In this document: piece after piece, positions 5,174-63,766 of the stretch
Layout: the number at the start of each line of letters is the position of its first letter
How positions within the stretch are numbered: position 1 is the first letter of the stretch
Source: a bacterium
GTDB lineage: Bacteria > Patescibacteriota > Microgenomatia > Woykebacterales > RBG-16-39-9b
Assembly (NCBI GenBank): GCA_030704665.1
Contig: JAUYID010000009.1
Coordinates: 163-64,162, forward strand
DNA: 64,000 nt
Direction of reading: 5' to 3'
Program-made: the position numbers and the translations under genes
Notes under the pieces: generated by a model
Seen by the model: only the letters and a program-made list of their open reading frames with translations
What the model was told of the DNA's origin: nothing
Database searches by the model: none

Positions 5174-5176
5174 AGT

Positions 5177-6169
5177 TTAATCGTAGTAACCAATTGCTTC
5201 CAGTCCAGCTAGCTTCTTTCCAGCCAGAAAATCAAGCATGGCGCCCCCACCCATTGAAACATAGGCAATTTTTGAAAGCAAGCCAATCTTGCTCAAAGCA
5301 GCGGCCGTATCCCCACCACCGACAACACTGTAACAACCTGAAGCAACTACTGCTTGGGCAATTGCCTTCGTTCCGTTGAGATAGCGCTCGTCTTCATATT
5401 TGCCCATGGTTCCATTCCAAACTACAGTAGCTGCTTTGGCGATTTCGTCTTGAAAAGATTGAATTGAAACTGGCCCAATGTCGGCACCATCAACATCGTC
5501 ACTGGCAACAATGACGTTGGAAATTTTTTCTTTAAACTCAAACATAAGTTTACCAGCTACCAAAACTTTGTCTGCAATCTTACTCATGTTGGTAATTGCC
5601 GGCAGTTTTGTTTCCAGCTTTGCTCCTGCCAAAATTGCTACTAATGGTCGTTTCGGGTTTCTCATGACCGAAGCGAGTTCATGAACTTCTTCTTCTAAGG
5701 CTATTCCAATAAAGGGTGGTAAAAATTTAGGTAAAAAAAGCATGGTTGCACCGGCGTGGTGAGAAGTTGCAAAGCAATCATTAACGTAACACTCACCCAA
5801 AAGAGCAACTTGTTTTGCAAAATTTTCTTCCCTAGCTTCTTCTTCAGGCCAAAAACGAATGTTTTCCAAACACGCTAGATCAGAAGTTGGTTTTTGAACT
5901 TCTGAAAGTAATTCGATTGGTTTGCCCACGAGCTGGGAAAGACTTGCAACTACCGGTTTTAAGGAAAAATTTGGGTCTCGACCCTCCGGGCGCCCGAGAT
6001 GGCCGAGAAGAATGACTTTTGCTTTTTGCTCGAGAAGAAATTTAATGGTTTTGCTCGAAGAGAGCAAACGAGCCTTCTCGACAACTTGCCCATTCTCGAG
6101 AGGAACATCAAGATCAGTCCAAACTATGACTGTCTTGTCGATTAGATCGGCGTCGCGGACAGAATGCAT
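5177..6169 (-). CDS. pgk: Phosphoglycerate kinase (short form)
   Basis: GHLGRPEG motif, C-terminal GGGD/GGGA motifs, and adjacency to tpiA. Confidence 0.85.
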   Translation of the reverse strand: MHSVRDADLIDKTVIVWTDLDVPLENGQVVEKARLLSSSKTIKFLLEQKAKVILLGHLGRPEGRDPNFSLKPVVASLSQLVGKPIELLSEVQKPTSDLACLENIRFWPEEEAREENFAKQVALLGECYVNDCFATSHHAGATMLFLPKFLPPFIGIALEEEVHELASVMRNPKRPLVAILAGAKLETKLPAITNMSKIADKVLVAGKLMFEFKEKISNVIVASDDVDGADIGPVSIQSFQDEIAKAATVVWNGTMGKYEDERYLNGTKAIAQAVVASGCYSVVGGGDTAAALSKIGLLSKIAYVSMGGGAMLDFLAGKKLAGLEAIGYYD

Positions 6170-27746: not shown

Positions 27747-28847
27747 TCAACTCTCCCACAACCTCAGCTGGTGACCTTCTGGGTAGATGGTTTCCAACTG
27801 TTTCTCAATTGTTTCTCCTTCCCCCAACTTTCCAATGATCTGGCGAGGTAGGTCCTCACCATAAATCTGTCTCGGCAAGGAAAGCAGCCCGGCTGCTCTG
27901 GCGACATCGCCTTTGGTCAAAGCAGTGTGAAGCGCTCCTCGCAGCCGACGTCTTGTCCGCTTCGGCAATCTCAACTCACCGTCGCGAATACTCACCCCCA
28001 AAACCTGGAGATTGGTATGGCCACTGATCTCCATAAGCTTGGTTTTGCGCTCGTTCAACTCGAAGGGAGTCTTCTCGTTGACGATTCGGCAGAGGGTGCG
28101 AACTTCAAGCTCAGTAATGGGACCATCTGCCGAGATCGCAATATTGTCCGCATAGCGGGTGTAGATCGCTCCCATCTTGTCAGCAAAGATCGCCAGACGC
28201 CGGTCCAGGTCACGGCAAACGAAATTGAAGAGAACCGGCGAGCTTGGTGCTCCCTGGGGCAAACGTGGCTCTAGTCCCAAACCTGGCACTAGAGTGGTGC
28301 AAAGGCGAGTGATCGCCAAAGCAAGCCACTTACCGATCTTGACTGCTCCAACCTCCTGCTCCAAGAGCTCTTCGAGCAACCACTTTCTGGTTACACTGCT
28401 GAAAGCGTCTTTGAGATCCAAGCTGAGCAGGTAGCGTGAGTGTCGGTGAGCCTCCACTGCGGTCAGCATTTTTCGATCCCGTACAAAACCGTGACACGCC
28501 CTGTGCACCGGCAGACCGGAGAGCAGGTTGCGTAGCATTCGTCGCTGCAGCCAGCGCAGCCGGGGGTCGGGAATCATCAGGATCCGAAAGTCCCCTGACC
28601 TCTTCCTGATCAGTCGCATGTCGTAGGACTCATCAATTCCACTTTCAACAATTGCCTGCAGTTGAGCCGGCCAAACGTGAAAGAGCAGGGCGAGGTAGCG
28701 GTAGGGGTTAAAGGACCGCCGAATCCGAAAAGGATCCAGCTGTGTCCATTCCCGCCAATTTCCAACCCCGTAAGAATCGTAAACGTCATCCTCAAGTTCG
28801 CCGAAACGAAACTCTTCTCCCGCCTCTTCCCAGGCAATATCAAGCAT
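27747..28847 (-). CDS. Retron-type reverse transcriptase (366 aa), GC-rich
   Basis: RT domains: RILMIPDP (domain 1), HRACHGFVRDRK (domain 2), LDLKDAFSSV (domain 3), LPQGAPSSPVLFN (domain 4, QGxxxSP, not the DGR variant), YTRYADNIAIS (domain 5; YADN rather than YADD), NERKTKLM (domain 7), and a VTG-like LQVLGVSI. AAGGAG SD 6 nt upstream of the ATG. Confidence 0.7.
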   Translation of the reverse strand: MLDIAWEEAGEEFRFGELEDDVYDSYGVGNWREWTQLDPFRIRRSFNPYRYLALLFHVWPAQLQAIVESGIDESYDMRLIRKRSGDFRILMIPDPRLRWLQRRMLRNLLSGLPVHRACHGFVRDRKMLTAVEAHRHSRYLLSLDLKDAFSSVTRKWLLEELLEQEVGAVKIGKWLALAITRLCTTLVPGLGLEPRLPQGAPSSPVLFNFVCRDLDRRLAIFADKMGAIYTRYADNIAISADGPITELEVRTLCRIVNEKTPFELNERKTKLMEISGHTNLQVLGVSIRDGELRLPKRTRRRLRGALHTALTKGDVARAAGLLSLPRQIYGEDLPRQIIGKLGEGETIEKQLETIYPEGHQLRLWES

Positions 28848-39430: not shown

Positions 39431-39931
39431 TCAGGACACCGACGCTGGTTCACCAGTCTCGATAGCGCCAGGTTCTACCAGACCGTCTCCCTCGAGGCGA
39501 TGAACCACCAAGCCAAAGACGATAACCCGATCCAGCTCCATAGCAGCCAGACGCGCCGCCTCCGCGACTCTAATAGTCGGCTCGAGACCTAAACCCAGAA
39601 GTAACCTATCCGCAACTTCAACGAGCAGATCGACACTCCCAGTCCCAGACCAGGGGTAACCCTTGAAGATCGCCACTGCTTCCTTGAGCTCACTACGAAC
39701 AATGGCAGGGTGGTTCTGGAAGAACATCATCCGGAAGGTCAGCTCAACCAGAAACTGGTTGATCACTGTGGCCCTGCGCAGCATCAGACTCAGCTTGTCG
39801 AACTGCTGCTCGTCGAGCTGGCCAGCGAGATGGGCGTTGATCAGGGTTGGCCCCACCCACTCTGGAAGGAGCTTACCGCTGATCACTCGGTAAACCAGGT
39901 CTTGCATCTGCCGAAAGTTGTCTGTAATCAC
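39431..39931 (-). CDS. Island gene 4: 166-aa all-alpha protein, unknown function (GTG start)
   Basis: GTG start preceded by AAGGAG 8 nt upstream. GC-rich codon usage. No recognisable motif. Confidence 0.5.
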   Translation of the reverse strand: MITDNFRQMQDLVYRVISGKLLPEWVGPTLINAHLAGQLDEQQFDKLSLMLRRATVINQFLVELTFRMMFFQNHPAIVRSELKEAVAIFKGYPWSGTGSVDLLVEVADRLLLGLGLEPTIRVAEAARLAAMELDRVIVFGLVVHRLEGDGLVEPGAIETGEPASVS

Positions 39932-49345: not shown

Positions 49346-50439
49346 TGTTGGCCAGTCTTGAAATAACCAACTTCCGTAATCTCAAAAACTCTAAACTGGA
49401 GTTTGCCAAAACCTTAAACATTTTTTATGGGGACAACGCTCAGGGAAAAACCAATCTCCTCGAGGCGATTTTCCTAATTAGCACGGGTAAGTCCTTCAAA
49501 TCCGAAGTTGATCGGGAACTGATCGCCTGGGGACAAACCTCAGCCCGAGTCGTTGCTCAAGCACCACCTCTAGAGATAGAACTAACGATAAATGAGACAA
49601 ACAAAAGACTGCTCGTCAACCGCCAGAGCCGGCGTCTGATTGAGCTAGTGGGCGAGTTTTTAGTGGTTTTGTTTGCTCCCGAGGATTTAAGTCTGGTCTA
49701 CGGCGCCCCAAGTCAGAGAAGAGCTTGGATCAACAGCCTGATCTCTCGTGTCGATCGCAAGTACCTCTTTAATTTAGGTAAGTTTAACCAGGTAATCAAA
49801 AACCGCAATCGGGTCCTTCTCTCGCTAAACCAAGGAGGCAGCCCGGATCTAGGAGTTTGGGATGAACAGTTTATCAAACTCTCAGTCGATCTTTGGGTCA
49901 GCCGGCAAGAATATCTCGCTAAGGTGAACAGCTTTTTAAAACAAATTGCCCCGAAGCTCGGAGTCAGCAAAATTACCGTTGAGTACCATCCGCAACTTGC
50001 AGTCAAAGACGCAAAATCGTTAAAGGCAGTTTTGACCAAAGAGCTCGAAAAACGAAGAAGAGAGGAGGTAGCCCGCGCGCAGACTGTTTTGGGTCCCCAC
50101 CGCGACGACTTTAAACTCATTTTTGAACAAATTGAGAGCGAGAAGGTTTTGACCAAGGATGTTTCTGTCTTTGGTTCCCGCGGTGAGCAGAGAACCGGAG
50201 TGCTCAGCCTGAAACTAGCAGAAATTGAGCTGATTGAAATGATCAAAGGTAAAAGACCGACGTTACTTTTGGATGACGTTTTAAGTGAATTTGACAAAAA
50301 ACACCGAGAAATGATTCAAGGGTTGCTTTATCGCCAGCAAAGTTTTATTACCACTACCGCGACCGACCTGCTCGATAAAAAACTTTTGAGCAAGGCAAAA
50401 CTCTTTCAGCTTAAAACTGGGCAAGTTGAGGCTGGCTAA
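49345..50439 (+). CDS. recF: DNA replication and repair protein RecF
   Basis: Walker A GDNAQGKTNLLEAI, signature motif and Walker B LLLDDV. Confidence 0.9.
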   Translation: MLASLEITNFRNLKNSKLEFAKTLNIFYGDNAQGKTNLLEAIFLISTGKSFKSEVDRELIAWGQTSARVVAQAPPLEIELTINETNKRLLVNRQSRRLIELVGEFLVVLFAPEDLSLVYGAPSQRRAWINSLISRVDRKYLFNLGKFNQVIKNRNRVLLSLNQGGSPDLGVWDEQFIKLSVDLWVSRQEYLAKVNSFLKQIAPKLGVSKITVEYHPQLAVKDAKSLKAVLTKELEKRRREEVARAQTVLGPHRDDFKLIFEQIESEKVLTKDVSVFGSRGEQRTGVLSLKLAEIELIEMIKGKRPTLLLDDVLSEFDKKHREMIQGLLYRQQSFITTTATDLLDKKLLSKAKLFQLKTGQVEAG

Positions 50440-52508
50440 CGCTCCAGGGGGTGGTAGGGCACCTTTTGTTTGGTGTTGAGGCTGACCTGGGTGGTCGTCT
50501 CTGATTTGAGTTCGACCGGAGCTGGTTTGGCCTCTTCCGGTTTTGGTTCTCGGGCCGGTGGCGCCTCAACTTCCTTTGGAGCCAAGGGTGTTTCTTGCCT
50601 CTCCTCCGCTTTGACTGGGAGCGCTGGTCCCGTTTCTCTAGCCAGTTTGGGGGCGGGGGGTATCTCCCCGCGTTCCAGTTTTTCCAGCAGGGCTGGGTCC
50701 TCTCGTCCCAGACGACGCAGTTTTTCTAGCTCCTTTGGGTTGGAGGTGATCAGAACGTGCTCGTGTTCGGCAGCCTGGACGCGGATAGCGACATGGTTTG
50801 CGCCAGCAAAGAAAAGACCCTCCCCGATATCAGCGCTGAGAAGCAGATTCTTCTCCCCCTCGGAAAGGTAGAAAACGGCCGAGACTTCGTTTATCGAAGC
50901 CGGTGACTGTTTGAGAAGAATTTGGATTGAGGAGTTGGTTACGATCGCCTTACCGTAATCAGTGTTGAGGAAATCTTCCACGTCTTGGGTGATGGTTGTC
51001 AAACCAAGGAAATACTTACGGGCTCTTTTAGCAATCGAGTACATGAAAGAAGCAGAATCAGGATGTTTCATCAGGTACCAAGCTTCATCAACGACGAGAA
51101 TTCTGCGCTTGCGGTCCTTTTTGATCCGAGTCCAAATGTAGTCAAGAATGATAAACATGGCAATCGGCCGCAGTTCGTCCTCCAGATCCCGTATCGAGAA
51201 GACCGTGAAAGTGTTTTTAATATCAACTGTGCTTTGTTGATCAAAAATTCCAGAAAGAGAACCTTTGATGAATTTTTCGAGCCTTTCCGCCATGGATTTG
51301 GCTTCGGGTTCGGCCATGTTTTGCAGAACCGAGTAAAGGTCTTCCATGACCGGAGATTCACTTGTTTGGGTGGTTGGATCTGGAGTGATTCCTTTCTGTT
51401 TGTAAGTAAGAATCAAGGCCCGGTCAAGGACAGCGTCTTCGGTTGAAGTGAGTTTCCCCAGAATGACCCGAAAAAGGGAATGCAGGGAAAGAATCTTAAG
51501 CCCTAGTTCGTTTTCGCCTTCCTCGTAAACTCCGGAGAGGTCGAAGGGGTTAATTTTAGCCTCAGTTTCTGTAGCAAACTTGATGTACTCCCCACCAATG
51601 GCTTTACAGAGCTCGCCATACTCTTCTTCTGGGTCGATAACGATGACTTCAGTGCCAAACATTAAACTGCGCAGAGTTTCCAGCTTGACCATGTAGCTTT
51701 TCCCCGCCCCAGACTTGGCAAAAACGACGCTATTAGCGTTTTCCAAAGTGAAACGATCAAAAATAATTAAAGAGCCGTTGTGCTCATTGATACCGTACAT
51801 GATTCCTTCGTTGGCAGTTAGCTCTGAAGAAGTAAAGGGAAAGGTTGTTGCCAAGCTCGTGGTGTCCATGTTGCGGGTAACAAAAAGCTTGTCACTAAAA
51901 GTGGGTAAGGTAGCCCGAAAGCCATCTTCTTGTTGAAGAGTAGCGTGTTTGGTGACCACCAGCAAAGAGCCTAGGGTCGACTCGACCTGCTTGGTGATGG
52001 AGTTGAGCTCCTCCAGAGATTCAGCTGGGATGGTGATATAAAAAGACATTTGAAAAAAGCGTTCAATACCCGCCGCTAGTTGCTCCTGCAGAGATTGGGC
52101 GTCTTCCAAGGCAACACGAACAGCCGGATCAACCACCCGACCAGCTTCCAGGTCACTTTGAACAGTTGCCTCCATCTCGGCAATTTTGTGGCGCAGGTCG
52201 TCAAGGATCCCCTTTGATTCTACGGGGTAGCAGTAAAAACAAAGGTCCAGGGTGTGGTCAAAGTTAATAATTGGGGCAAGCCAATTAGCCCCGACAAAAC
52301 GAGGGTAGCCGGAAACAAAGAGAGTTCGAAAGTAAAGATCCCCTAGTTTAAGGTTGTCAAAATCAACTTCAAGCGCCGGTGGAGCGATAATATCTTTAAC
52401 ATCGACCATCCCCGCTCCCAAAGTCTTAGAAATTTTGTTCCTCGTTTTCGCAAGCTCTATTTCCTGAGGAGAAGGAGTTTTTTTCTTCGGGAGGAGAGAA
52501 AATTTCAT
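50436..52508 (-). CDS. virB4: VirB4/TrbE/CagE-type type IV secretion ATPase (ATPase portion)
   Basis: Walker A FAKSGAGKS, Walker B ILVVDEAW, overall VirB4 C-terminal organisation. Confidence 0.75.
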   Translation of the reverse strand: MKFSLLPKKKTPSPQEIELAKTRNKISKTLGAGMVDVKDIIAPPALEVDFDNLKLGDLYFRTLFVSGYPRFVGANWLAPIINFDHTLDLCFYCYPVESKGILDDLRHKIAEMEATVQSDLEAGRVVDPAVRVALEDAQSLQEQLAAGIERFFQMSFYITIPAESLEELNSITKQVESTLGSLLVVTKHATLQQEDGFRATLPTFSDKLFVTRNMDTTSLATTFPFTSSELTANEGIMYGINEHNGSLIIFDRFTLENANSVVFAKSGAGKSYMVKLETLRSLMFGTEVIVIDPEEEYGELCKAIGGEYIKFATETEAKINPFDLSGVYEEGENELGLKILSLHSLFRVILGKLTSTEDAVLDRALILTYKQKGITPDPTTQTSESPVMEDLYSVLQNMAEPEAKSMAERLEKFIKGSLSGIFDQQSTVDIKNTFTVFSIRDLEDELRPIAMFIILDYIWTRIKKDRKRRILVVDEAWYLMKHPDSASFMYSIAKRARKYFLGLTTITQDVEDFLNTDYGKAIVTNSSIQILLKQSPASINEVSAVFYLSEGEKNLLLSADIGEGLFFAGANHVAIRVQAAEHEHVLITSNPKELEKLRRLGREDPALLEKLERGEIPPAPKLARETGPALPVKAEERQETPLAPKEVEAPPAREPKPEEAKPAPVELKSETTTQVSLNTKQKVPYHPLER

Positions 52509-53236
52509 TGCTGCTCCCCCCCTTTTGCTTGGTTGATGACCGGTTCGAGAGCGGGTTGAACAATGGGGGTGGTGTATTCTTGGGTTGAAAGAGCTGCTTT
52601 TTGTTCTCGAGCCACTTCTGGGTTGTAAAGATCGTAGAAAAGCTCGACCAGCTCTTCCGTCGCGAGCTGTTTGCCTTTGATCCCAATACGGTTGAGTTGT
52701 TTGACGAGATGAGCGATTTTTGGGGCTAAGTTTATCTTAGCTTTTTCGAGAGTACTCCACTTGTTCCCCACCACAGTTTTTTTTGGGAAAAGAGCTGGTG
52801 GTTTGATTTGCGATAAATCTCCTGAGAAATAGGGGACTACTACATAAAAACGCTTGTCGAGAACTTGATTGCGAGAAACCAGATCGCGGACAAACCGAGA
52901 GTAAAGGTCAATCTGTCCCGCCAAACGCTCATTTTTGGTTTCTGCTTTGGCTCCATCCAAGAGTTTGAGGTAGTTGGAAATATCCATCCTTTTGGACCGC
53001 ACAATGATCTGAATTGGAAAGGTCAGTGAGTTCAAAAGAGCTGCATAAGCAAAGATCATTGCGTCTTGCTCGGATTCGCTTAAAAGGTCAAAATTGACCG
53101 CGTTGGTCTGAAGGATAGCCGCTGCTCCTCCGTTTTTCAAAATGATCAGATCATCGCGAATGTCTTCGACATCGAGGTGTTCTTGAGTTGTCGGAAGTCT
53201 TTTTGCTTTGGACATTTTAAATTGCCTTGATTTCAA
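52505..53236 (-). CDS. VirB4 N-terminal-domain-like protein (possible split VirB4 or separate T4SS component)
   Basis: ATGA start/stop overlap with the downstream ATPase ORF. Combined length about 930 aa, matching full-length VirB4. Confidence 0.4.
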   Translation of the reverse strand: MKSRQFKMSKAKRLPTTQEHLDVEDIRDDLIILKNGGAAAILQTNAVNFDLLSESEQDAMIFAYAALLNSLTFPIQIIVRSKRMDISNYLKLLDGAKAETKNERLAGQIDLYSRFVRDLVSRNQVLDKRFYVVVPYFSGDLSQIKPPALFPKKTVVGNKWSTLEKAKINLAPKIAHLVKQLNRIGIKGKQLATEELVELFYDLYNPEVAREQKAALSTQEYTTPIVQPALEPVINQAKGGEQQ

Positions 53237-55334
53237 TTGGCTTCATGATTTCCCCGCCTAATTGAACTTGGGTAATGTCGAATTCCAAACTATCTTTTTC
53301 AAGCTCAATATTGTAAGTCCCGTTGGGTAGAGGAGTGGAGATCACAAATTGACCAATTTTGTTGGATTTTAGAGCCCGAACCGGCTCCCCCTTCTCATCT
53401 TTGATAATCATGACTGCTCCAGAAACGAGTAAACCCCCCTTGTCGCGAACAATCCCATTGACGACATTGGGGAAGGAAACTTTGGGCGGAATCATTTTTC
53501 CAAAAGCCGGCTGGGCAGCTACAACATTCCTCCCCCGCGCTTTCTTGGCCCTTTCCTTCTCGGCGAGAGCCTTTACTTCCTCTGCAATTTTGGCTTTCTG
53601 AACTACCAATTCTTTTTGTCTTTCGGTCGCCGCTTCCCCTTCGTTTCTGGCCTTTAGCTCACTTTCCCGAATTTTTTTGTCGATCTGCTCGTTGAGAAGG
53701 TGAACTTCGGCCGCAATTCTCTGTTTTTCACCTTGATATTGAAGCCCCTCGTATTGAACCATGATATCTGCTTGGTGCTCCAAATTTTTTAAAGTATCAG
53801 ACAACTTGTCCCGCTCCCCTTCGGAGAGCTGCTCTCGGCCCAGTTTGGCAAGTTTGCCTTCTGCCACAATGGTATCTTTTTGAATTTCTTGGCGATCGGC
53901 GCGGTGGGCCAAAACTTTCGGATCGACCGGAGTTTTAACGGGTTCGGCAATTTGGGCCGCCTGTTTTTCTGAAATTATTACCGGGTTGTTGATGACAAGA
54001 GGTGGCTGGGTGGGGCCCATTTTACTCATATCGAGGTTCTTGGATGTTTCTTCCAGGTTGCCCGGGAGTTTGATTACTTCTTGACCAGTCTTTTCTTCAG
54101 AAGCCTCGAGTTTAACTTCTTTTGGCTCGGTTTGTTTTTCTTCAACCACTTTAGGAGGGCTTGGAGGTACTAGTTGCGGGTTTTCCCCGCTTGGTTTTTC
54201 GACAGCCTCAGTTTCTAGGGCCGTTTTGGTAGGTTGTGGGCTTTCGGGGGCTTTAACGGCGGGTTCTTTGACCGCCTCAACACTTGTACTAGCTAGCGCG
54301 CTTACTGGGTTCTGTTCAGCTACTTCGGGAAGTAATTCTTTTTGAGCCGGGATATTTATTGGGGTATAAGAAGCCTTGGTCAGCTCAGAGGGTTTTTTTG
54401 AAAGCTCAATCAGTTTCTCGGCCAAAGGCGGTAGTTTGGCTAGGGACTCAAGTGGCGAGCCCTTGGTTTCGGTCGAGGGCCCGAGCGGACGCACTTCAGA
54501 GACCACAACCTCCTTGGGCTCAAATTTAATTTTTTGACTTGGAGGGGTCGGCTCTGCCTTGAGAGTTGGCGGCAGGCTAATTTGTTTGTTAGGTTGGGGC
54601 AACTCGCGCCCTTCTTCTTTGGGGGGTGCTGCTGGGAGAGGGTTTGGTGTCTTGGTTTCGGGTTGAGCGGAAGCGCCCAGCCCCGCAGTTGGGTTTTTGG
54701 TCTCCTCGAGCCGTGGTTCAGGCGTTTTTGTTGCCGGCAAGCTACCAACAACTGGCTTGGGAGCTGGCTGGTTGACGGCGACGGTCTTGGCGGAAACAGG
54801 AAGAGCCTGAGAAGCTGCTTGAGCCACGGCCTGTTTTTGGTTTCGTTGACTCAAAAGACTGCGGGCAGCCTGGGTAGTTTTGGTTAGCTCGGAAAGCAGT
54901 TTGCTGCGGTCAGCCAAAGGGGAAATCTGACTTTTGAAGCTTGGGGCCGGGACGCCCAAGTAGATAGGAGCTGTTTGCGGCTCGAGTAGGGGCCTGGCAG
55001 CGGCCTGAACTTGGGAACCAATTCCAGCCTGCAAGCTCTCCGGAAACTCAAAGACACGCTCACCGCGAACGGGCAAAATTGCTTGGCCATTAAGAGCAAC
55101 AGGACGAAGGTAACGAGGTTGGCTATTGTTGACACCTCTGACATAGACTAGCTTCCGACCCATCTTGACGGTGGCGACGGGGTTGAAGCCAACTTCGGAG
55201 GCAATTTTTGGTTTATCCTCTTTAGTCTCACTGATAGTCCGCGCCTTTTCGGTCGGTGAAAAACGATGCAGGGTGGGGATGTGAACAAAGGTACGCAGCT
55301 TTGCCGCAGCTTTGGTCAGAACCTCATTGCTCAT
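53217..55334 (-). CDS. Pro/Thr/Lys-rich T4SS-associated protein with coiled coil and a C-terminal carboxypeptidase-regulatory-like beta domain
   Basis: Long low-complexity P/T/K-rich spacer, coiled-coil KERAKKARG region, and C-terminal VISTPLPNGTYNIELEKD beta-sandwich-like end. Confidence 0.4.
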   Translation of the reverse strand: MSNEVLTKAAAKLRTFVHIPTLHRFSPTEKARTISETKEDKPKIASEVGFNPVATVKMGRKLVYVRGVNNSQPRYLRPVALNGQAILPVRGERVFEFPESLQAGIGSQVQAAARPLLEPQTAPIYLGVPAPSFKSQISPLADRSKLLSELTKTTQAARSLLSQRNQKQAVAQAASQALPVSAKTVAVNQPAPKPVVGSLPATKTPEPRLEETKNPTAGLGASAQPETKTPNPLPAAPPKEEGRELPQPNKQISLPPTLKAEPTPPSQKIKFEPKEVVVSEVRPLGPSTETKGSPLESLAKLPPLAEKLIELSKKPSELTKASYTPINIPAQKELLPEVAEQNPVSALASTSVEAVKEPAVKAPESPQPTKTALETEAVEKPSGENPQLVPPSPPKVVEEKQTEPKEVKLEASEEKTGQEVIKLPGNLEETSKNLDMSKMGPTQPPLVINNPVIISEKQAAQIAEPVKTPVDPKVLAHRADRQEIQKDTIVAEGKLAKLGREQLSEGERDKLSDTLKNLEHQADIMVQYEGLQYQGEKQRIAAEVHLLNEQIDKKIRESELKARNEGEAATERQKELVVQKAKIAEEVKALAEKERAKKARGRNVVAAQPAFGKMIPPKVSFPNVVNGIVRDKGGLLVSGAVMIIKDEKGEPVRALKSNKIGQFVISTPLPNGTYNIELEKDSLEFDITQVQLGGEIMKPIEIKAI

Positions 55335-55939
55335 TTAGAAGCCTCCAAATCATCTGCGCCAAGAGGGGGTAAAACTTGTCCTGGTGGGGAAGATTTAATT
55401 TCTGAGGTCATCTGGGCGACTTGTTGGCTGAGCTGCCCTAGTCTTTTTTCCTCTTCCACATCAAGAGCCGATTTGGCTCCGAGGTGGTGGTGAGAAACCA
55501 AATACTGGTTAAGTTTGGCCCTGTCGGAGTGGGCAATTGGCTTTGGTCCTTGCTGATGTTGGAGATAGATGGAAAACTCAGGAGCTAAGAAGCCGAGCTC
55601 AACTGGCTCTTTGCGCCAAACTCGCTGGGTTGGAGTATAGACGGAGCGGACAAAAGCAACAAGCCAACGATCGAAAGGAATGTCGTTTATCGGCAAAAAA
55701 GCAAGCGCCAAGCCCAGAGGACCGATTAGAAAGATGAGTAAAAAGCGAACTATTATATACAGAGGTATGAGATAAATAACAAAGCAGAGAATACCCGCAG
55801 CCGCCAAATAACCAAACTGACGAATGGTCAGAAAACCAACTAATTTAAATTCAAACCCAGTTATGTTCTGCGGGACAGGATGAGACTGCATACTTTTTTG
55901 TTTAAAACTCGGGAAGCGAGTTTTTCCTTGCTTTGTCAC
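55331..55939 (-). CDS. VirB3/PrgI-like small membrane T4SS protein
   Basis: Two adjacent TM helices (FGYLAAAGILCFVIYLIPLYIIVRFLLIFLIGPLGLALAF). Immediately upstream of the other T4SS genes. Confidence 0.4.
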   Translation of the reverse strand: MTKQGKTRFPSFKQKSMQSHPVPQNITGFEFKLVGFLTIRQFGYLAAAGILCFVIYLIPLYIIVRFLLIFLIGPLGLALAFLPINDIPFDRWLVAFVRSVYTPTQRVWRKEPVELGFLAPEFSIYLQHQQGPKPIAHSDRAKLNQYLVSHHHLGAKSALDVEEEKRLGQLSQQVAQMTSEIKSSPPGQVLPPLGADDLEASK

Positions 55940-56208: not shown

Positions 56209-56237
56209 TCTTGACTTTTAGCTTCAGTCGAGTTATA
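56209..56237 (+). promoter_or_regulatory. Near-perfect sigma70 promoter TTGACT-N17-TATAAT
   Basis: TTGACT-tttagcttcagtcgagt-TATAAT on the plus strand. Confidence 0.6.
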
Positions 56238-56243
56238 ATAGCT

Positions 56244-56418
56244 CAAACTAAAAACCGGCTAAGGTAGACCCCGGAAAAATAGTCTGACAGAAATGAAAAA
56301 GACATTTAAGCTTCAGAAACAGAAAGCTAGAGCCAATCCCCAGCAATGGGGTCTTTCGGCATAAGGCTGAAAGAACGGGCTCTGGCAATCAGCAATGATC
56401 ACCAGAGCCCGTTTTTTG
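56244..56418 (+). ncRNA. About 170-nt promoter-to-terminator unit (small RNA, or a 34-aa Lys-rich peptide MKKTFKLQKQKARANPSNGVFRHKAERTGSGNQQ)
   Basis: Consensus promoter upstream. Intrinsic terminator GGGCTCTGG-15nt-CCAGAGCCC plus TTTTTT at 56375-56418. Internal hairpin CCCCAgcaaTGGGG. The ORF lacks a convincing SD and runs into the terminator stem. Confidence 0.4.
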
Positions 56419-56710
56419 TTGAGTAGCCCTTTTACAATTAAAGAGTTAGAAAATTGTTCACCTCAAAGTGCGCGAGAGCCTTGGGGGAAAGATGGAAGCT
56501 GAGCTTAGAAAATGGCCTCTAGTAGCGAAAAAAGAGCTAAACTAGTTGTAATAGGCAGCCTAGAGCTTGCTTTTATCTTCCCCCCAATGCGCTGTTGCTT
56601 TTATGCACTCGCTTGGGGATCAACTTCACTTACACGTCTGGCTTTCAGGCTAGTACGTTTTGATCCACAACAACGAGTTGCATAGCAACAAGAGCAGCAC
56701 TGGGAGGTGC

Positions 56711-59700
56711 AAAATGACAGACGGTATCGATGACGCAACTCCTGATGAGGGACTAACACCTCAGGAAGAAGCGATTCTCCGTGGAAAGGAAGCTGCTTGG
56801 CTGACTGACTACGGCTATCTAGCTGGCGAGGGGACCCCCTACGCCAACGACAATCAGCATCTGCTTCACCTCGGGTGGAGGGACAGCAGTAATAACTACG
56901 ATCGAGTCATGAGTATGGAAATGATTCAGCGTCGGTACCACTCGAAGCTGGTCTTTTTCGCAGTAACTCGAGAAGCCAAGTTCTCAGTACAGCAGCAGTT
57001 TCGTACTACTGAAGGGGGAATCCAACGCCCCTTGTATGTCTCGTCCGAGTGGTATGTCTGGGAGTACAAGAAAACTGACGGACCCACACATGACGAAAAG
57101 GGTTGGCCTCTCAAAAGAGAAAGCAGACGGGTTCCAGCACAGGCAACGGATCAAGGGGCTTTTAGGGAGCCTAGTACTACTTTGGACATTCAGAAGGCCG
57201 ATAGGGACCGTGATGGCACTCCGATAGTCGCCACCGGTTCTGTATTCATGGGGTGGAAGTACAACTTCCAGCCTGTGGGCGACGCCGACATTCGGGCCGA
57301 AGACAGCAAGGTCTACGCACGAGTTCAGAGGATCTGGAACAATACCGGCAAGCTACCGAGTGTACTTCAGACGGGTGAGGAGAAGACGATTAAGAACGAC
57401 CTTCTCCAGCTTCTGAAGGACCTTAAAGAATTGACCGGTGAGGACTGGAGTACCAAGGGCAATCCCAACGAGGCCAATCGCCGTGTCATTATGGAGCGGC
57501 GCTGGATACTCGGCCGGAACCACCCCGAGACTTACCAACAGCATCTTCGGGTGCTGGGTGGCAAGATCCCAGAGGAGTACTTCTTCGCTGAGTACAACGA
57601 GCTCCGCCGGCAGAAGGCCCGCAATATGGACCGCCCGCTGGAAGAGCAGGATCGTGTTCGCGATCCCTACTCGGCCAGCCTGAAACACCTGCTCGACAAG
57701 CGGGTCGACGGACGGATCGTTTACGCGGGAACTCCAGAGTATGATGAGGCTCGCGGTAGACTGATTCCCGAGATCAGGATCACTCTGCTCAATGACCACG
57801 GCCTCTCAACCTTGGCCGAGTACAATATCACGCAGAAGTACCTGATCAACGGCTACACTTTCGAAAGAACCTGGGAGTGGCAGCAGAACATGCGGGCGAA
57901 GGCTCTTCAACGAGCTAGCCTCAGGGTTAAGCTGCCGAAGAGTCACCCACTCCACTTGTCCCCGAACGCAGTGGGGGATTTTGTGGACGATTATCCTGAA
58001 GGTCGAACCTTCTGGATAACTCCATCCTGCAGCGACGCTTTTGTACGTTCCTTGGCAAATCAGATTCGCACCGATTACCGGGAAGAGCTTCCGGAAGGTG
58101 TCGAATTCACTCGGGACGAAGGCGGTCGTGAAGTGATGCGTCGGCTCCCGTCATTGCGAAACCAAGGCGGGGAAGAGGAGAAGCAGTTCTCCGATGAGTT
58201 GAACGCAGATATCCTCACCGCCACGTCAATAACGACCCTGGCGGATAAGAAGTGCCGTAACGTCAACGCCTTCGCGCATATTGTGAAGAGCTGTCGTATC
58301 ACTCGGGACGGTCAAGCTGACTTTACCGAGGCGAAAGAGGTACGTCTCACGATCGAGGAGGATCGTGATAAGCAGAGGCGTAATGAAGATCAAGTACAAA
58401 CTCGAACTCTAACCATGGCTTATGATGCTGGTCAGCTCGACCAGAATCGCCCTGGCCAGGCACGAGATCGAGGAATTGGTGGTCCGCGCAGCGCAGAGCC
58501 GTGGATTGCTGATCCAAAGTTCCGCCTCAATTGGTGTCTCTTGTACAAGCAGAGGCGAGACCCGAGAACAGGCAAGATTCTGCGCAACGATCTAGGCAAC
58601 CCTCTTTGGGAGCCACGCTACAGCTCAGAGGATGGGGCTCGTGCCTCGGTAATGATACAGAGAGCACTTGCGAACCCAGCCACAGATGTTGTGGTACCGA
58701 CTCAAGAAGAGGCCGTCAAGAAGGCCTGGAAGAAGCGCTGCGACGAGAACCTCTTCGTGGCCCAGTTCGTTCAGGATCCCTACTACGACCGGCGGCCCGC
58801 GGACACGGCCATCGCTACCAACCTGATCGGTCGCAAGACCAGTATCACGGGTGGGGTGAAGCTAAATATTACGGGGGCCACCAAGGCTGCCAACGGCAAG
58901 GGCTACACCTTCGACGATCTTCTCAAGGATCTGCCGGGGCTACGTAACTACTTGCCGAACGACTACGATCAGAACGGAGCCTTCGATGGCAAGCTCGATG
59001 AGGAATTTTACATCCTTCAACTCGAGCTCATGTTCTACATCGACCCTCGCTATGTTGCCAAGATTCACAAGGGTTCGTGGAGTTGGTATCTCTTCCACGA
59101 GCAGAACATGCGTGTCACACGCATCAGCGAGGACCTGCGTGCCACCCGAGCCAATTTCCTGCGTCAGCAGGACGTTGCCTGGGGGATGTGGGCTGGACAA
59201 TCGCCGAAGGGGATGGTGCTACACTGTGACGAGACGCTTAGCACCGACATCCACAACGGGATTTTCAACCCGTTGCCGGACTTGCAGAAGGCTGCCAACG
59301 GCTACCCCGGCATTCACATGCCGAACGTAATCATGGTGGCTCCAGATGGGCAGAAGTGGAACCTTCAGGACCGGCCCAGGAAAGACTTCGAAGATGCTTA
59401 CACACCGCTCAACTGGAGAGCTCACGAGCATATCGGCAGAGGAGAGGCAGACGACACCTTCATTGGTTACGCGACTGCTTTCTCGACCAGTACCTTCACC
59501 GGACTAGCTCACTCTGGCCTGGGGCGGCGTCTGGGTGATACAGAGGCGGAAACCTATCTCGTTCGTGCTCAGGGTAGGCAGTCTTGGGTGAATGGAGTAG
59601 TTCCGGCTCTCAAGTCCCACGCTGAGGCAGTCTCAGCCTTTGGGACCGGTGACCTGAACGAGAATGATTGGATGAGGTCTGCTCTTGATAGCGGTAAGGT

Positions 59701-60085
59701 GACTGGCGAGTGGTTTAAGTCCACAGGACAGTTGTTCTGGAAGGGCGAGAAGGTTCAGGAGGTCAAGATCCTCCACACTGCCGAATACATCAAGGACCAC
59801 TCCTACCCAGACAATCCTCGCGATGCTCACGAGCTGGCGAAGATGATCTGGGAACGCCGTATTGACGGGAAAGGTTACCGCTATGGTTGGGAAGAGGTTG
59901 AGGCGGAAGCAATACGGATTCTCTTTGGTGGTCAGCGACCGGCTCAGTTGAACCCGCATGGCCGCTGGAGGCTGAACGCGATCTACTGGGCTTACCGAAC
60001 TACCCGCCATTTCCGTGCGGTCTCACTGACCAGCGAGGAGGAGAGGAGTCACGAACGGCCGGTAATCCATTTAGCAGCGGCTTAG
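56711..60085 (+). CDS. Large (1124 aa) GC-rich orphan protein of no recognisable family, inserted inside the T4SS locus
   Basis: ATG with GGGAGGTG 4 nt upstream (the ORF-track start at 56660 is 17 codons earlier, without an RBS). Consistent GC-rich codon usage over 3.4 kb. No P-loop, HExxH, TM or signal peptide seen. Trp/Tyr/Arg/Asp-rich. Confidence 0.6.
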   Translation, partial: KMTDGIDDATPDEGLTPQEEAILRGKEAAWLTDYGYLAGEGTPYANDNQHLLHLGWRDSSNNYDRVMSMEMIQRRYHSKLVFFAVTREAKFSVQQQFRTTEGGIQRPLYVSSEWYVWEYKKTDGPTHDEKGWPLKRESRRVPAQATDQGAFREPSTTLDIQKADRDRDGTPIVATGSVFMGWKYNFQPVGDADIRAEDSKVYARVQRIWNNTGKLPSVLQTGEEKTIKNDLLQLLKDLKELTGEDWSTKGNPNEANRRVIMERRWILGRNHPETYQQHLRVLGGKIPEEYFFAEYNELRRQKARNMDRPLEEQDRVRDPYSASLKHLLDKRVDGRIVYAGTPEYDEARGRLIPEIRITLLNDHGLSTLAEYNITQKYLINGYTFERTWEWQQNMRAKALQRASLRVKLPKSHPLHLSPNAVGDFVDDYPEGRTFWITPSCSDAFVRSLANQIRTDYREELPEGVEFTRDEGGREVMRRLPSLRNQGGEEEKQFSDELNADILTATSITTLADKKCRNVNAFAHIVKSCRITRDGQADFTEAKEVRLTIEEDRDKQRRNEDQVQTRTLTMAYDAGQLDQNRPGQARDRGIGGPRSAEPWIADPKFRLNWCLLYKQRRDPRTGKILRNDLGNPLWEPRYSSEDGARASVMIQRALANPATDVVVPTQEEAVKKAWKKRCDENLFVAQFVQDPYYDRRPADTAIATNLIGRKTSITGGVKLNITGATKAANGKGYTFDDLLKDLPGLRNYLPNDYDQNGAFDGKLDEEFYILQLELMFYIDPRYVAKIHKGSWSWYLFHEQNMRVTRISEDLRATRANFLRQQDVAWGMWAGQSPKGMVLHCDETLSTDIHNGIFNPLPDLQKAANGYPGIHMPNVIMVAPDGQKWNLQDRPRKDFEDAYTPLNWRAHEHIGRGEADDTFIGYATAFSTSTFTGLAHSGLGRRLGDTEAETYLVRAQGRQSWVNGVVPALKSHAEAVSAFGTGDLNENDWMRSALDSGKVTGEWFKSTGQLFWKGEKVQEVKILHTAEYIKDHSYPDNPRDAHELAKMIWERRIDGKGYRYGWEEVEAEAIRILFGGQRPAQLNPHGRWRLNAIYWAYRTTRHFRAVSLTSEEERSHERPVIHLAAA

Positions 60086-60175
60086 GTTAGAAGGGAAGAG
60101 TATGTAAGGAGAGAGAAGGGTCCTCGGACAAAAGCACACTACAAGTGCGTCCGGGGGCCTTTTTCTTTGGCTAAA

Positions 60176-62203
60176 TTAGGTGTTTTCGTTGTCAGGCGGA
60201 GTGTTATTAGGTGGGTTTTGGCGAAGAGTACGACCAATACTTCTTAGGTGTTCTGCAGCTTCACGAGCAGCAGCGTTCAGATCATGAATTCCCTCCACGT
60301 CGCCCATATTGACAGGGGGTCTAGAAGTATCACCTTGACCTCCACCTGCAGCGGCGCCCGCTCCCTGAGCCCCCTGTTCACGGTCAGCTGCCGGAACTGC
60401 CGCACCTGCGTTTGCCTCTGATCTAGATTTCCAGCGTTTAGTTGGGTCTTGGAAGACTGTGTTGCCGACACTAGTTACAAGATTATCCAATTTCCCCGCT
60501 CCGGGGATGCCTATTCCAGCTTTATTAGCACCCAGCCGCCCTGCAGTAAAAGGTATCTTGAAATTGCTGATTCTTTCAGTAATAGGTTTAATTGAGTTTA
60601 TCGGACTTGTCCTTGGGTTGGTAAGGTTAGTGTAAGCACTCACTGGAGCAAAGATCAGAGGGCCGGCGGAGAGACCACCGCGAGTAGTGTCTTTGACACC
60701 AAAGAGATCTTGAAGAGCATTGGGGACTTTGGTAGCAAAGAAAAGAATCCCGATCCCAATCAAATAGGGTAGATTTAAAATATTGGAACCAATTGGAGGC
60801 GGAACCTTGATGGGATCATTGCCCGGACCTATTTGTACCCACCAAGAGGAAAACCACATGAAACTGAGAGCTAGGTGCATGAGGAGCACAACTGCCGGAA
60901 AGGCTAGGGCGGCCGCCGCCATACGTTTGAACCAATTACTGATGATGCTTTCATAGCCGGGGAGAGCTCCGGCCAGGAAAAAGAAAGGGCTGAAGATGAT
61001 GAGGAGAAGCATGCTGGCATAAGTAGTCAGCAGTTTCCAAAAAAGCCAGACCGCGACTGCAAAAGCTGAGAGGCGGATCAGTATATCAATCAGGGGGATG
61101 ACGATAGTCAGCAGAATAGAGGCTGAGATGCCAATAGCGGCAACTCCACCTAAAACTGGTATATGACCGCCAATGGCGTTGTAATCAATGAAACTGTTAG
61201 TACTAAAAAGAGTAAAGACCGGAATCCAGATCAGTTCACCACCGGCTTTGGTCGAAAGGACATTGAAGACCCCGTTGAGGACACCATTGGAGTAATAGTC
61301 ACGGACTATATTGACGGAAAGAAAAATAAAATCAAGAAAGAGCCCGGAGATTGCAAAGCTAAAGACAATCAGAAAAAGAGCAAGGACGACTCGGGGTAGC
61401 GAGTTGAGAACAGAAACCACGTTTTTGTCTGGCAGGCGACGGCGGAAGATGATCATGACGCTGATAGCGAGCATGACTAGAACCATGAAGATGAGAGCCA
61501 GTTGGCGCGCCTTGGCCCAAGTATCTTTGACGATAGCGGTATCAATTGAGTCCGGACCGACGCCGCCTTGGGCATTGGCCGAGCCGATTCCCAGAAGATT
61601 ATCTTTGAGCGCGTCAGCCACATAAGAGCCCGGGCTTTGGTAAGGAATAGCTTTGTAGACTCCACCAATGGCTATATCAGCCACCATGAAAACGTTGTAT
61701 TCATCTGGGGAGTTCAGAAAAGCATTGTTGTTACAGAAAGGCAGGTCGATTAGGGGAATTGTGCAAACAGATTTGCCCATAATTTTTAATGCCACGGCAA
61801 TCCCACCCTGAACTGCTAGGTAAAATAGATCAACTATGTTTCCCTTCAGCCAACCGAAAATAGTTCCCGGCAAATCAGTTACTCCGTTGTAGGCATCTTG
61901 AACTGCTCCGCAGGCCTTACCAATTCCTGGAGCCTTACAGGGATTGAGAATTCCTGGAAGTTCCGCTCTTTGGTCGCTGGGAGCTAGGGCGGTTGAGCTG
62001 TCCGTCAGCGAAGAAGAGGAATTCGTCTCGTCATTCGTATTTTGGTAGGAAGGAAGCGCTTGATTTGAGGTTTTCGTCTGAGTGGATAAGTTTAGTTGAG
62101 TAGGATCTGCTTCGACTGCAAGAGCAGGGACAGCAGAAACCAGACTAAAAAATACCAAGAGATAGCCAAAGAGAAGTTTTTGCAGTAAACCTTTTTTGAA
62201 CAT
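60176..62203 (-). CDS. TrbL/VirB6-like polytopic membrane T4SS protein
   Basis: Signal peptide, about 200-aa extracytoplasmic domain, at least 6 TM helices, Gly/Ala-rich C-terminal tail (GAQGAGAAAGGGQG). Confidence 0.5.
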   Translation of the reverse strand: MFKKGLLQKLLFGYLLVFFSLVSAVPALAVEADPTQLNLSTQTKTSNQALPSYQNTNDETNSSSSLTDSSTALAPSDQRAELPGILNPCKAPGIGKACGAVQDAYNGVTDLPGTIFGWLKGNIVDLFYLAVQGGIAVALKIMGKSVCTIPLIDLPFCNNNAFLNSPDEYNVFMVADIAIGGVYKAIPYQSPGSYVADALKDNLLGIGSANAQGGVGPDSIDTAIVKDTWAKARQLALIFMVLVMLAISVMIIFRRRLPDKNVVSVLNSLPRVVLALFLIVFSFAISGLFLDFIFLSVNIVRDYYSNGVLNGVFNVLSTKAGGELIWIPVFTLFSTNSFIDYNAIGGHIPVLGGVAAIGISASILLTIVIPLIDILIRLSAFAVAVWLFWKLLTTYASMLLLIIFSPFFFLAGALPGYESIISNWFKRMAAAALAFPAVVLLMHLALSFMWFSSWWVQIGPGNDPIKVPPPIGSNILNLPYLIGIGILFFATKVPNALQDLFGVKDTTRGGLSAGPLIFAPVSAYTNLTNPRTSPINSIKPITERISNFKIPFTAGRLGANKAGIGIPGAGKLDNLVTSVGNTVFQDPTKRWKSRSEANAGAAVPAADREQGAQGAGAAAGGGQGDTSRPPVNMGDVEGIHDLNAAAREAAEHLRSIGRTLRQNPPNNTPPDNENT

Positions 62204-62308: not shown

Positions 62309-63766
62309 ATGAGCCATTTTTTTGACGACCCAGAAGAACAAGCCCAAAATGAGCAAAGAGAACAGCTTGGTGAAGAAGCCCTTGATCGCGGTGTTGAAAA
62401 AGCCGCCAAAGGCCTAGAAAAAAAAGCCGCTGCCGGTCGTGCTACTACTGCTGCTGGTAAGGCCGGGGTTGAGGCAGGTGAAGCTGCCGGAGAGCGGGGA
62501 GCCCTCACCGCCGGCGGAAAAGCAGGTGCTGAGGCAGTCGGTAGGACTGGTGCGGCGGTGGCCGAAACAGCCGCAATTGAGGCAGCCGAAGAAGGAGTTG
62601 CCGCGGCGGCTACTCCTGAAACCTTTGGTATAAGTGAAGCAATCATGCTCGCCTATCTGGCAGCGAAAAAACTGCCGGTGCTTGGAAGTCTGATCAAAGG
62701 CGGAGAAAGAGCGCTTGCTAAGATCCTTGAGGTAGTAGTTTGGCCAATTGCGGGTTTTTGTATTACTTGCTGCGGAGCCTGCCTTGTTTGTTGTCTAGCT
62801 CCGGCTGCACTTGTGGCGGCTGTAATAGCTTTGCTTGTTTTCGGAGTGATGAATTTGTATGACGCTGTCCGTCCTTCGGCATCTGAAGCAGGGGGTGGTA
62901 CCTATACCCCCCCGACGATAAGTGTCTCCAAAACCGCGAGTCCGGTTTTCATTGTGAAATGTGCTTCTGGCACGGCCGCTGATGTCGAGTACCGGATTAC
63001 GGTTCAAAACAACTCAGATTCTGATCAGACGGTTTCCATTACAGACTCTTTTGATGATGAGCCGAGTTTGGGAACAGTGAGAACCTTTAGCGGAGTCGAT
63101 ATCGCCCAAGGAGAGACTTGGGTTTCCCCGGTTATTAAGGTGAGGATGCCGAGTACTTGTGATGAAAGAGTTGTTGTTAACACCGTCCGAGTCAATGGGG
63201 GTGGTAGCCTAGCCAGCACGGTAGCTTTTGTTACCATTGGAAACCCCGTCAATGCTCCACCTCAAGGCTGTCCAATCGTAGGAACAATTTTTACTCCTTT
63301 GGGAATAAATATTCCCGGCTACACTTACTTCGGCGGAACCCACTACGGTATGGATATTTCTGACACTGCCGGTACTGCTCTTGGTTCACCGGTGCATAGT
63401 ACTTTGACCGGCAGTGCAGTTGCTTCAGTTGGGAGGGCGGGAAATCAAATTGTCACCGTGACCAGCCCGGACGGGGTCTGGCAAGTGAAGTTTTTGCATC
63501 TCGCCGTTGGAACTACGGTCAGTGGTCCAGTAGTGGTAGGCCAGGTGATCGGAACTGAAGATAACACCGGGGTTTCGGGCGGAACTCATGTTCACTACGA
63601 AATTTACAAAAATGGTGCTATCCAAAACCCTTTCAACTACACTCCTTCGACCAACGCTTTGGGTTACATTCCAGATATCGACCCGGGCACGGGCTTGCCA
63701 GACTACGCCGGTGTCAGCGACCCTGGTACTTGGGGAACTTGTAACGCTCTACCACCGGGGTCGTAA
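62309..63766 (+). CDS. Membrane-anchored M23-family peptidoglycan hydrolase (T4SS-associated lytic enzyme candidate)
   Basis: C-terminal GGTHYGMDIS...GGTHVHYEIY M23 zinc motifs. Ala/Gly-rich N-terminal region, then a TM segment with a CCGAC cluster. Confidence 0.65.
   Translation: MSHFFDDPEEQAQNEQREQLGEEALDRGVEKAAKGLEKKAAAGRATTAAGKAGVEAGEAAGERGALTAGGKAGAEAVGRTGAAVAETAAIEAAEEGVAAAATPETFGISEAIMLAYLAAKKLPVLGSLIKGGERALAKILEVVVWPIAGFCITCCGACLVCCLAPAALVAAVIALLVFGVMNLYDAVRPSASEAGGGTYTPPTISVSKTASPVFIVKCASGTAADVEYRITVQNNSDSDQTVSITDSFDDEPSLGTVRTFSGVDIAQGETWVSPVIKVRMPSTCDERVVVNTVRVNGGGSLASTVAFVTIGNPVNAPPQGCPIVGTIFTPLGINIPGYTYFGGTHYGMDISDTAGTALGSPVHSTLTGSAVASVGRAGNQIVTVTSPDGVWQVKFLHLAVGTTVSGPVVVGQVIGTEDNTGVSGGTHVHYEIYKNGAIQNPFNYTPSTNALGYIPDIDPGTGLPDYAGVSDPGTWGTCNALPPGS

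Follow-up and report, generated by a model that had tools for sequence, protein, structure and literature searches.

An attenuator-like leader and apparently exchanged alleles mark a candidate type IV secretion substrate of Patescibacteria

Within a 64,000-nucleotide stretch of a Woykebacterales genome (GenBank assembly GCA_030704665.1, contig JAUYID010000009.1, positions 163 to 64,162; hereafter, the window), a type IV secretion system (T4SS) locus includes a large gene for a protein without a recognised family, and we propose this protein as a candidate substrate of the neighbouring secretion machine. Its relatives are linked to T4SS or conjugation genes wherever their surroundings can be read, the distribution of its subfamilies suggests exchange of alleles at a fixed chromosomal slot, and the coding sequence lies behind a conserved leader that resembles a transcription attenuator. 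We tentatively interpret the gene as encoding a conditionally expressed T4SS substrate or effector that is diversified by allele exchange, and put the probability of this interpretation at about 45%.

Patescibacteria possess a T4SS of the monoderm conjugative type (PMC12102498). It is essential for epibiotic growth in the single species tested genetically, usually lacks a relaxase and often a coupling protein, and its substrates are not known (PMC10633639, PMC12102498, PMC12857230). Hence the usefulness of a candidate that is embedded in the locus itself.

Results

A small protein family linked to secretion and conjugation

The preliminary description of this DNA, made from the sequence alone, took the protein for an orphan. 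The lack of a recognised family was upheld: neither the window protein nor any of 15 relatives matched anything in Pfam, NCBIfam, PHROG, PADLOC or the PDB sequences, and phage records (tblastn, 50,697), plasmid collections and IMG/VR contained no match. The protein is not alone, however, given that exhaustive and profile searches uncovered a small family, with about 20 relatives in total. A word-indexed homolog search with the window protein returned only the protein itself, and the same kind of search seeded with sequences of subfamilies B and C (see below) returned five proteins. Exhaustive phmmer comparison with 1.84 billion representatives gave six relatives only, a profile search added four, and a local hidden Markov model (HMM) of the family, run on 80 loci fetched via VirB4, added eight members from GTDB genomes. 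It is this local scan that places the family in GTDB genomes; a search with a four-sequence alignment found nothing there or in IMG/VR, and only already known loci in JGI metagenomes. The open reading frame (ORF) in the slot of locus L022 was tied to the family by hhalign at 95.6% probability.

In at least 14 genomes, the family gene occupies the same slot, between the VirB6-like gene and prgI, and the eight GTDB members are found there. The window and the loci of P0002, P0004, P0007, P0009 and P0011 share the order dnaA-dnaN-recF / VirB4-TrsD-X-PrgI / gene / VirB6-like / M23 / T4SS pilins, with the pilin arrays seen further along where the contigs reach far enough. A second architecture is that of P0003 (locus L006), which lies directly 3' of a Replic_Relax relaxase-type gene and a TrwB/TraG-D_C coupling-type ATPase and 5' of an SNF2 helicase, on an 11-kb contig of 59% GC content; the linkage to T4SS or conjugation is therefore present in two distinct arrangements. 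The independent contexts that would be sought for a T4SS substrate comprise the same-slot genomes and L006. Altogether, the 15 readable contexts are all T4SS- or conjugation-linked and none is in a defence island. The preliminary description had named a T4SS-delivered effector among the possible identities and had made the proposal hinge on such linkage among homologs; this option is strengthened because every readable homolog context shows it. In the neighbourhoods of plasmid relatives of the L006 coupling ATPase, we found no conserved module with a large downstream gene. The SNF2 helicase of L006 (6797-9682) is 53-60% identical to plasmid SNF2-related genes of Hymenobacter, Blastomonas, Aeromonas and Klebsiella, a similarity that would fit a widely travelling cassette.

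The slot is not always filled by a family member. In more distant WWE3 loci, the VirB6-like gene directly abuts prgI and the family gene is absent; in L018 and L033, the slot holds large ORFs without detectable similarity to the family. Neither the other slot occupants nor the small ORFs nearby had a match in Pfam scans. In GC-richer WWE3 genomes, the spacer between VirB6 and PrgI contains opposite-strand ORFs of about 240 codons (L042, 2927-3658; L045, 6445-7164), with a GC content at third codon positions (GC3) of 0.76-0.80 and no Pfam match. In L016, the spacer between the family gene and prgI (4920-6072) is enlarged to 1153 nt and contains two extra ORFs (96 and 87 aa) on the other strand. 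The labels "uncultured Gammaproteobacteria" and "Nanoarchaeia archaeon" on L011, L013, L016, L022-L025, L032, L035 and L036 look wrong because these records carry a Patescibacteria-type T4SS beside dnaN and, in most of them, recF as well.

Subfamilies that contradict the genome tree

VirB4, TrsD, PrgI, dnaN, recF, VirB6 and the Pro/Glu/Lys-rich protein of the locus define three genome clades. The deep division of the family itself, into the three subfamilies A, B and C, cuts across these clades: clade II contains B and C, and clade III contains A, B and C. Family members are 15-47% identical, compared to 71-94% for VirB4 in the same genomes. Between L007 and L016, VirB4 is 94%, dnaN 72% and VirB6 55% identical, and the family gene 19%; between L011 and L016, the family gene is 47% identical and VirB6 29%. 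In neighbour-joining trees, subfamilies A and C were each recovered in 100 of 100 bootstraps, L007 and L016 never appeared as sisters (0/100), and the GC-rich mobile copy P0003 was nested within subfamily A. Because the distribution of the subfamilies contradicts the genome tree, we infer repeated allele exchange at the slot.

The composition of the gene also sets it apart. Its GC content is 55.4% versus 46.4% for the whole window, and its GC3 is 63.7% versus 0.42-0.52 in the flanking T4SS genes, in agreement with the GC-rich codon usage noted in the preliminary description; in all four genomes tested, as in the GTDB loci, the gene has a higher GC3 than its neighbours. High-expression codon bias was rejected as the cause because GroEL and ribosomal protein L25 of the window have low GC3 values (0.49 and 0.37, respectively). 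Either a foreign pool of genes or GC-biased gene conversion, the latter at a recombination hotspot, could account for the excess. The only further GC3-rich genes of the window are a retron-type reverse transcriptase and an ORF without an assigned function. The former (27747-28847, - strand, 366 aa, GC3 0.61) contains a YADN motif, sits between an M23-like gene and groEL, and has retron-type reverse transcriptase models as its top PADLOC matches (E 3e-52). At 0.65, the GC3 of the latter (39431-39931, - strand, 166 aa) is the highest of the window; this ORF matched neither Pfam nor PADLOC and is possibly another foreign gene.

The earlier suggestion that the gene is the cargo of a mobile insertion survives in part: it behaves as an exchangeable cassette of foreign composition, but no flanking repeats, integrase or transposase were found around it, and its position is fixed clade-wide, behind a vertically inherited leader. 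A transposon-type insertion was rejected given the lack of flanking repeats. A target of a diversity-generating retroelement was rejected as well: there are no direct repeats of at least 45 nt in the window, and the reverse transcriptase is retron-like and 28 kb away.

A conserved leader with the anatomy of an attenuator

Conservation is higher in the 774-nt spacer towards prgI than in the protein, and together with the gene this spacer makes up a self-contained unit of conserved promoter, leader, coding sequence and terminator (Table 1). Leader ORFs of 17-23 codons, rich in Lys, Ile and Leu, are found at the same place in nine loci. The leader ORF contains, in 9 of 9 distinct leaders, the segment that best complements the terminator's 5' arm (dG -14 to -20 kcal/mol), denoted region A; in shuffle tests of its complementarity, the fraction was at most 0.03 for six of the nine. 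In L011, region A (CCTCAGAAG) fits the variant arm of that same locus (CTTCTGAGG). In the terminator hairpin, 11 of 17 pairs are kept through two-sided changes in at least one sequence. Its two sequence variants follow genome clade, not gene subfamily, which argues for a switch that descends with the locus and a coding part that is swapped.

The 5' untranslated region (UTR) beyond the terminator contains blocks conserved between loci (GAGCACTTTAACAA.CGAATA and AAACAAACAAAAA) and a hairpin, CCCCTTG(A/G)TG...CA(T/C)CAAGGGG at about 56582-56618, the arms of which resemble anti-Shine-Dalgarno and Shine-Dalgarno sequences; RNAalifold did not recover an outer stem or a consensus fold for it. We found no site resembling a promoter between terminator and start codon. 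Downstream of the gene, the hairpin between the convergent stops is likely the terminator of the unit.

Leader-peptide transcription attenuators are known from the trp, his, leu and ilv operons. As in those, the leader combines a promoter, a short ORF enriched in a few amino acids, a segment inside it that would pair with the 5' arm of the terminator, and a U-run. The window leader thus has the anatomy of a leader-peptide attenuator, from which we infer its function. It differs from the classical cases in that it precedes a gene of a secretion locus rather than a biosynthetic operon, the frame of the peptide over region A varies by lineage, and no Rfam family matches it. The leader was found only beside the family gene. 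In L024, the promoter and leader region occurs twice (1198-1568 and 3205-3329), ahead of a GC-rich ORF of 267 aa and a truncated ORF of 358 aa, neither detectably related to the family.

The protein and its Ala-Ala end

The true start of the gene is the ATG at 56714, preceded by a ribosome-binding site with an equivalent GGAGG in homologous loci, and the stop is at 60085; the product is identical to the protein Q8P13_00465 of the metagenome-assembled genome at NCBI. The underlying ORF (56660-60085, + strand, 1141 aa) opens with TTG, and the ATG is the 18th codon after it. The preliminary description, which gave 56711, 1124 residues and a start 17 codons downstream, was accordingly one codon off.

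A motif scan found no Walker A (G....GK[ST]), HExxH or C..C motif in the protein, and neither a transmembrane segment nor a signal peptide is predicted because the best 19-residue hydropathy window scores only 0.76. These scans agree with the features listed at the outset, as does the richness in Trp (2.7%), Tyr (3.8%), Arg (8.9%) and Asp (7.2%). The family diverges along its full length and is best conserved in the centre, where the conserved residues of the window protein cluster (positions 262-830): R262, W264, E272, R279, D536, E548, R551, D552, R555, G589-G590, G728, R744, Y746, D777-P778 and G787.

Structural comparisons did not assign a fold. The single-sequence AlphaFold prediction had a pLDDT of 32.7, and a medium-confidence AlphaFold model matched no known fold; among the viral folds of BFVD, the best match had E 0.04 with a template-modelling (TM) score of 0.06, and a match to a "large polyvalent protein" fold was not significant (E 0.09, TM 0.07). 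In a profile search of the PDB, the best hits were the Sf6 small terminase (E 0.73), through an "RLxxxRRWxLxRxxPxKY"-like stretch, and a polyketide cyclase (E 0.95), both treated as chance. When the protein was considered as a core T4SS component (relaxase, VirD4, VirB4/VirB11, VirB6/VirB8 or adhesin), no Pfam or NCBIfam match, Walker A motif or hydrophobic segment was found, and no PADLOC model of a known anti-phage defence system matched it. The homology to a structural T4SS component, relaxase, coupling protein or phage protein that would have spoken against the initial proposal is therefore absent from these comparisons. We predict a soluble cytoplasmic, mostly alpha-helical protein of a new family.

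The protein ends in ...HLAAA, and an -Ala-Ala end, usually after a hydrophobic residue, is present in 9 of 13 distinct full-length members. In the same loci, only 1.15% of ORFs of at least 200 aa end this way, and half of those are family members. A C-terminal ..AA is the key determinant of ssrA-type degrons recognised by ClpXP (..LAA-COOH), which the family tail resembles, but the tail is genetically encoded and not added by transfer-messenger RNA. T4SS signals are also C-terminal, so that the tail could be a secretion signal instead; it is conserved, but is not a known T4SS signal.

The surrounding locus

The profile scans and transmembrane predictions bear out the placement of the gene, on the opposite strand, inside a cluster of VirB4, VirB3-like, VirB6-like and M23 hydrolase genes (Table 1). 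The dnaA, dnaN and recF genes are directly upstream of the T4SS locus in the window, and the remaining genes are ordinary chromosomal housekeeping ones. This layout corresponds to that of the Patescibacteria T4SS described beside dnaA (PMC12102498). With the MPF-FATA-like system of Patescibacteria (Wang et al. 2023, PMC10633639; Quinonero-Coronel et al. 2025, PMC12102498), the window locus shares its surrounding genes, namely VirB4, TrsD-like, PrgI/VirB3, VirB6-like and M23, the adjacency to dnaA-dnaN-recF and the lack of a relaxase, and its relatives share the VirB2-like pilin arrays. In the parts of the Patescibacteria T4SS literature consulted, we found no gene for a large soluble protein described between VirB6 and PrgI. 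Unlike the described system, the gene is confined to one WWE3/Woykebacteria-like clade and is absent from about 65 other WWE3-type loci.

The VirB6-like gene (60176-62203) has no family match. The Pro/Glu/Lys-rich protein is of low complexity, and its position between PrgI and TrsD is conserved; in distant WWE3 loci, PrgI is apparently fused to a region of this type. Across the window and L001, L003, L007 and L011-L023, VirB4 is 71-94% and the TrsD-like protein 55-92% identical, compared to 35-75% for dnaN and recF, which would indicate either unusually strong constraint on the secretion ATPase or its recent spread.

Table 1. Positions of the T4SS genes and of the elements of the family gene's expression unit in the window
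Feature	Position	Strand	Basis or remark
VirB4 ATPase	50436..52508	-	NCBIfam conju_CD1110, 396 bits vs cut-off 325
TrsD-like VirB4 N-terminal gene	52505..53236	-	profile scan
705-aa Pro/Glu/Lys-rich protein	53217..55334	-	C-terminal CarboxypepD_reg match, weak, below threshold
PrgI/VirB3-like; right border of the slot, first gene of the prgI-to-VirB4 operon	55331..55939	-	Pfam, 44 bits vs 27
sigma-70-type promoter, TTGACT-17 nt-TATAAT	56211..56239	+	TTGAC and G.TA.A.T invariant in 9 aligned loci
Leader ORF, 23 codons (MKKTFKLQKQKARANPQQWGLSA)	56293..56364	+	Lys/Ile/Leu-rich
Region A (AGCTAGAGCCA), candidate anti-terminator in the leader ORF	56325..56335	+	complements the 5' arm of the terminator, dG -18.6 kcal/mol
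Intrinsic terminator hairpin, arms 56370-56391 and 56396-56417, then T-run	56370..56423	+	covariation
Long 5' UTR with conserved blocks and a putative hairpin CCCCAA...TTGGGG at about 56582-56618	56424..56701	+	sequence conservation across loci
Ribosome-binding site GGGAGGTG	56702..56709	+	4 nt 5' of the ATG
Coding sequence, family member of subfamily A, 1123 aa	56714..60085	+	acidic N-terminus, conserved core, ...HLAAA C-terminal tail
Strong hairpin and T-run between convergent stops	60110..60168	.	dG -36.7 kcal/mol
VirB6-like polytopic membrane protein; left border of the slot	60176..62203	-	8 predicted transmembrane segments
Peptidase_M23 cell-wall hydrolase	62309..63766	+	part of the T4SS locus

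Discussion

Under the model that we tentatively favour, the window protein would be exported by the neighbouring T4SS to, or into, the host bacterium of the epibiont, and its coding cassette would be swapped by recombination under diversifying or host-specific selection. By default, with ribosomes translating the leader ORF through region A, the leader terminator would end transcription; when ribosomes stall 5' of region A, for example under amino-acid shortage, read-through into the gene would follow. The -Ala-Ala tail would act either as an ssrA-like degron that clears unexported protein or as a C-terminal secretion signal. The lack of a transmembrane segment, a signal peptide and an enzymatic or structural family would also suit a substrate.

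Several observations weigh against this model. No coupling protein was seen in the 64-kb window, a situation that is frequent in the vicinity of Patescibacteria T4SS loci. We found no known T4SS translocation signal, effector domain or chaperone, and the case for export of the protein is built on genomic context and sequence, just as the attenuator and the degron are sequence-based models. The reading frame of region A in the window and in L001 differs from that in L015 and L023, and because the frame differs between lineages, the sequence of the leader peptide is not conserved. The structure is of medium confidence, and a known fold could have been missed. The VirB6-like, M23 and Pro/Glu/Lys-rich neighbours are also fast-evolving, at 27-61% identity; low identity of the family gene is therefore not special by itself, and only the incongruence of the trees is. 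Finally, the link to a mobile context consists of the single L006 contig.

Among the other explanations, we consider it unlikely that the protein is a non-secreted, cytoplasmic accessory or regulator of the T4SS, such as an assembly platform on VirB4, or a receptor or adaptor for substrates that takes the place of the missing coupling protein. A position fixed across the clade and a product that is soluble and helical, as adaptor proteins are, would suit such a role, and the copy beside the L006 coupling ATPase could mean a physical partnership. However, the would-be partners VirB4, TrsD and PrgI agree with the genome tree and show 45-94% identity. The family gene, at 15-47%, does not agree with it, and a structural interface that co-evolves would hardly produce such a mismatch. 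Moreover, the distant WWE3 loci in which VirB6 abuts PrgI have the same machine without the gene, and an attenuator combined with a degron-like tail would be unusual for a stoichiometric component. The patchy alleles, the foreign GC3 in every genome, the copy on a mobile-like contig beside an SNF2 helicase and the dissimilar slot ORFs of L018 and L033 could alternatively reflect a selfish or defence/anti-defence cassette that uses an intergenic hotspot and has no functional tie to secretion; that the other GC-rich gene of the window encodes a retron-type reverse transcriptase points in the same direction. This explanation, too, appears improbable to us. The leader descends vertically, together with the T4SS locus, and is restricted to this place, none of the readable contexts is a defence island, mobility genes and flanking repeats are missing, and the protein has neither a nuclease, ATPase or sensor motif nor any counterpart in PADLOC, PHROG, Pfam, IMG/VR or the phage and plasmid collections.

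An explanation closer to our model, and in effect a special case of export in which the protein acts on incoming DNA, is that it is transferred along with DNA in conjugation and was kept from a conjugative ancestor. The RP4 TraC primase, ColIb Sog, and ArdC-type and "polyvalent" proteins are transferred during conjugation, and the family resembles them in that its proteins are large and variable and one member lies in an operon with a relaxase and a coupling protein. The order relaxase, coupling ATPase and family gene in L006, along with the conjugative type of the Patescibacteria machine (PMC12102498), would fit this possibility. We nonetheless give it a low probability: there is no primase, Toprim, metalloprotease, methylase, helicase, nuclease or ssDNA-binding signature in the family, the chromosomal loci contain no relaxase or oriT-processing genes (as also described in PMC12102498), and the link is one contig. 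By far the least probable is the R-S-E ADP-ribosyltransferase toxin suggested in the preliminary description, with a catalytic site near the C-terminus. The spaced pattern WRAHEH...FSTSTF...TEAETY is present in the window sequence alone, and none of its three elements is conserved in the family alignment: relatives have KD, TPA, GTG, SGS or TGQ at the STS position, and the ExE positions vary freely. Conservation is found instead at positions 262-830, a helical structure is predicted for the C-terminal region, and no family or fold of this enzyme class was matched (Pfam over 15 members, PDB sequences and folds). A polymorphic toxin of the CDI, Rhs or T6SS type was rejected given that the sequences diverge from end to end and are best conserved in the middle. 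Neither is there an immunity ORF in the window because the 90-nt terminator alone separates the gene from the VirB6-like gene.

CagA of Helicobacter pylori and the Beps of Bartonella are large orphan T4SS effectors encoded in or beside the locus of their machine. The family proteins resemble them in being large, soluble, free of a Sec signal, confined to a narrow group, atypical in composition, diverse and encoded in a T4SS locus. They differ in the absence of EPIYA, BID or any other known signal, and the recipient would be a bacterium. To our knowledge, no allele replacement behind a conserved leader has been described for effectors of the CagA or Bep type.

A fuller version of the T4SS substrate model would make the family the first identifiable cargo of the Patescibacteria T4SS: a host-directed effector with ancient, exchangeable alleles, expressed from a dedicated site that consists of the conserved promoter and a starvation-sensing leader, the allele setting the range of exploitable hosts and the Ala-Ala tail coupling export to degradation. 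In this complete form, we regard the proposal as speculative and somewhat unlikely. The window gene is, nevertheless, the best candidate so far for a protein exported by this system. Should the protein turn out to be a non-secreted accessory or to belong to an unrelated cassette, it would still represent a new protein family with an unusual evolutionary pattern. As a concrete and testable cargo candidate for the Patescibacteria T4SS, it was identified by criteria that could also find analogous genes elsewhere, and the apparent swapping of its alleles points to a genetic route into the host specificity of ultrasmall bacteria that are uncultivated.

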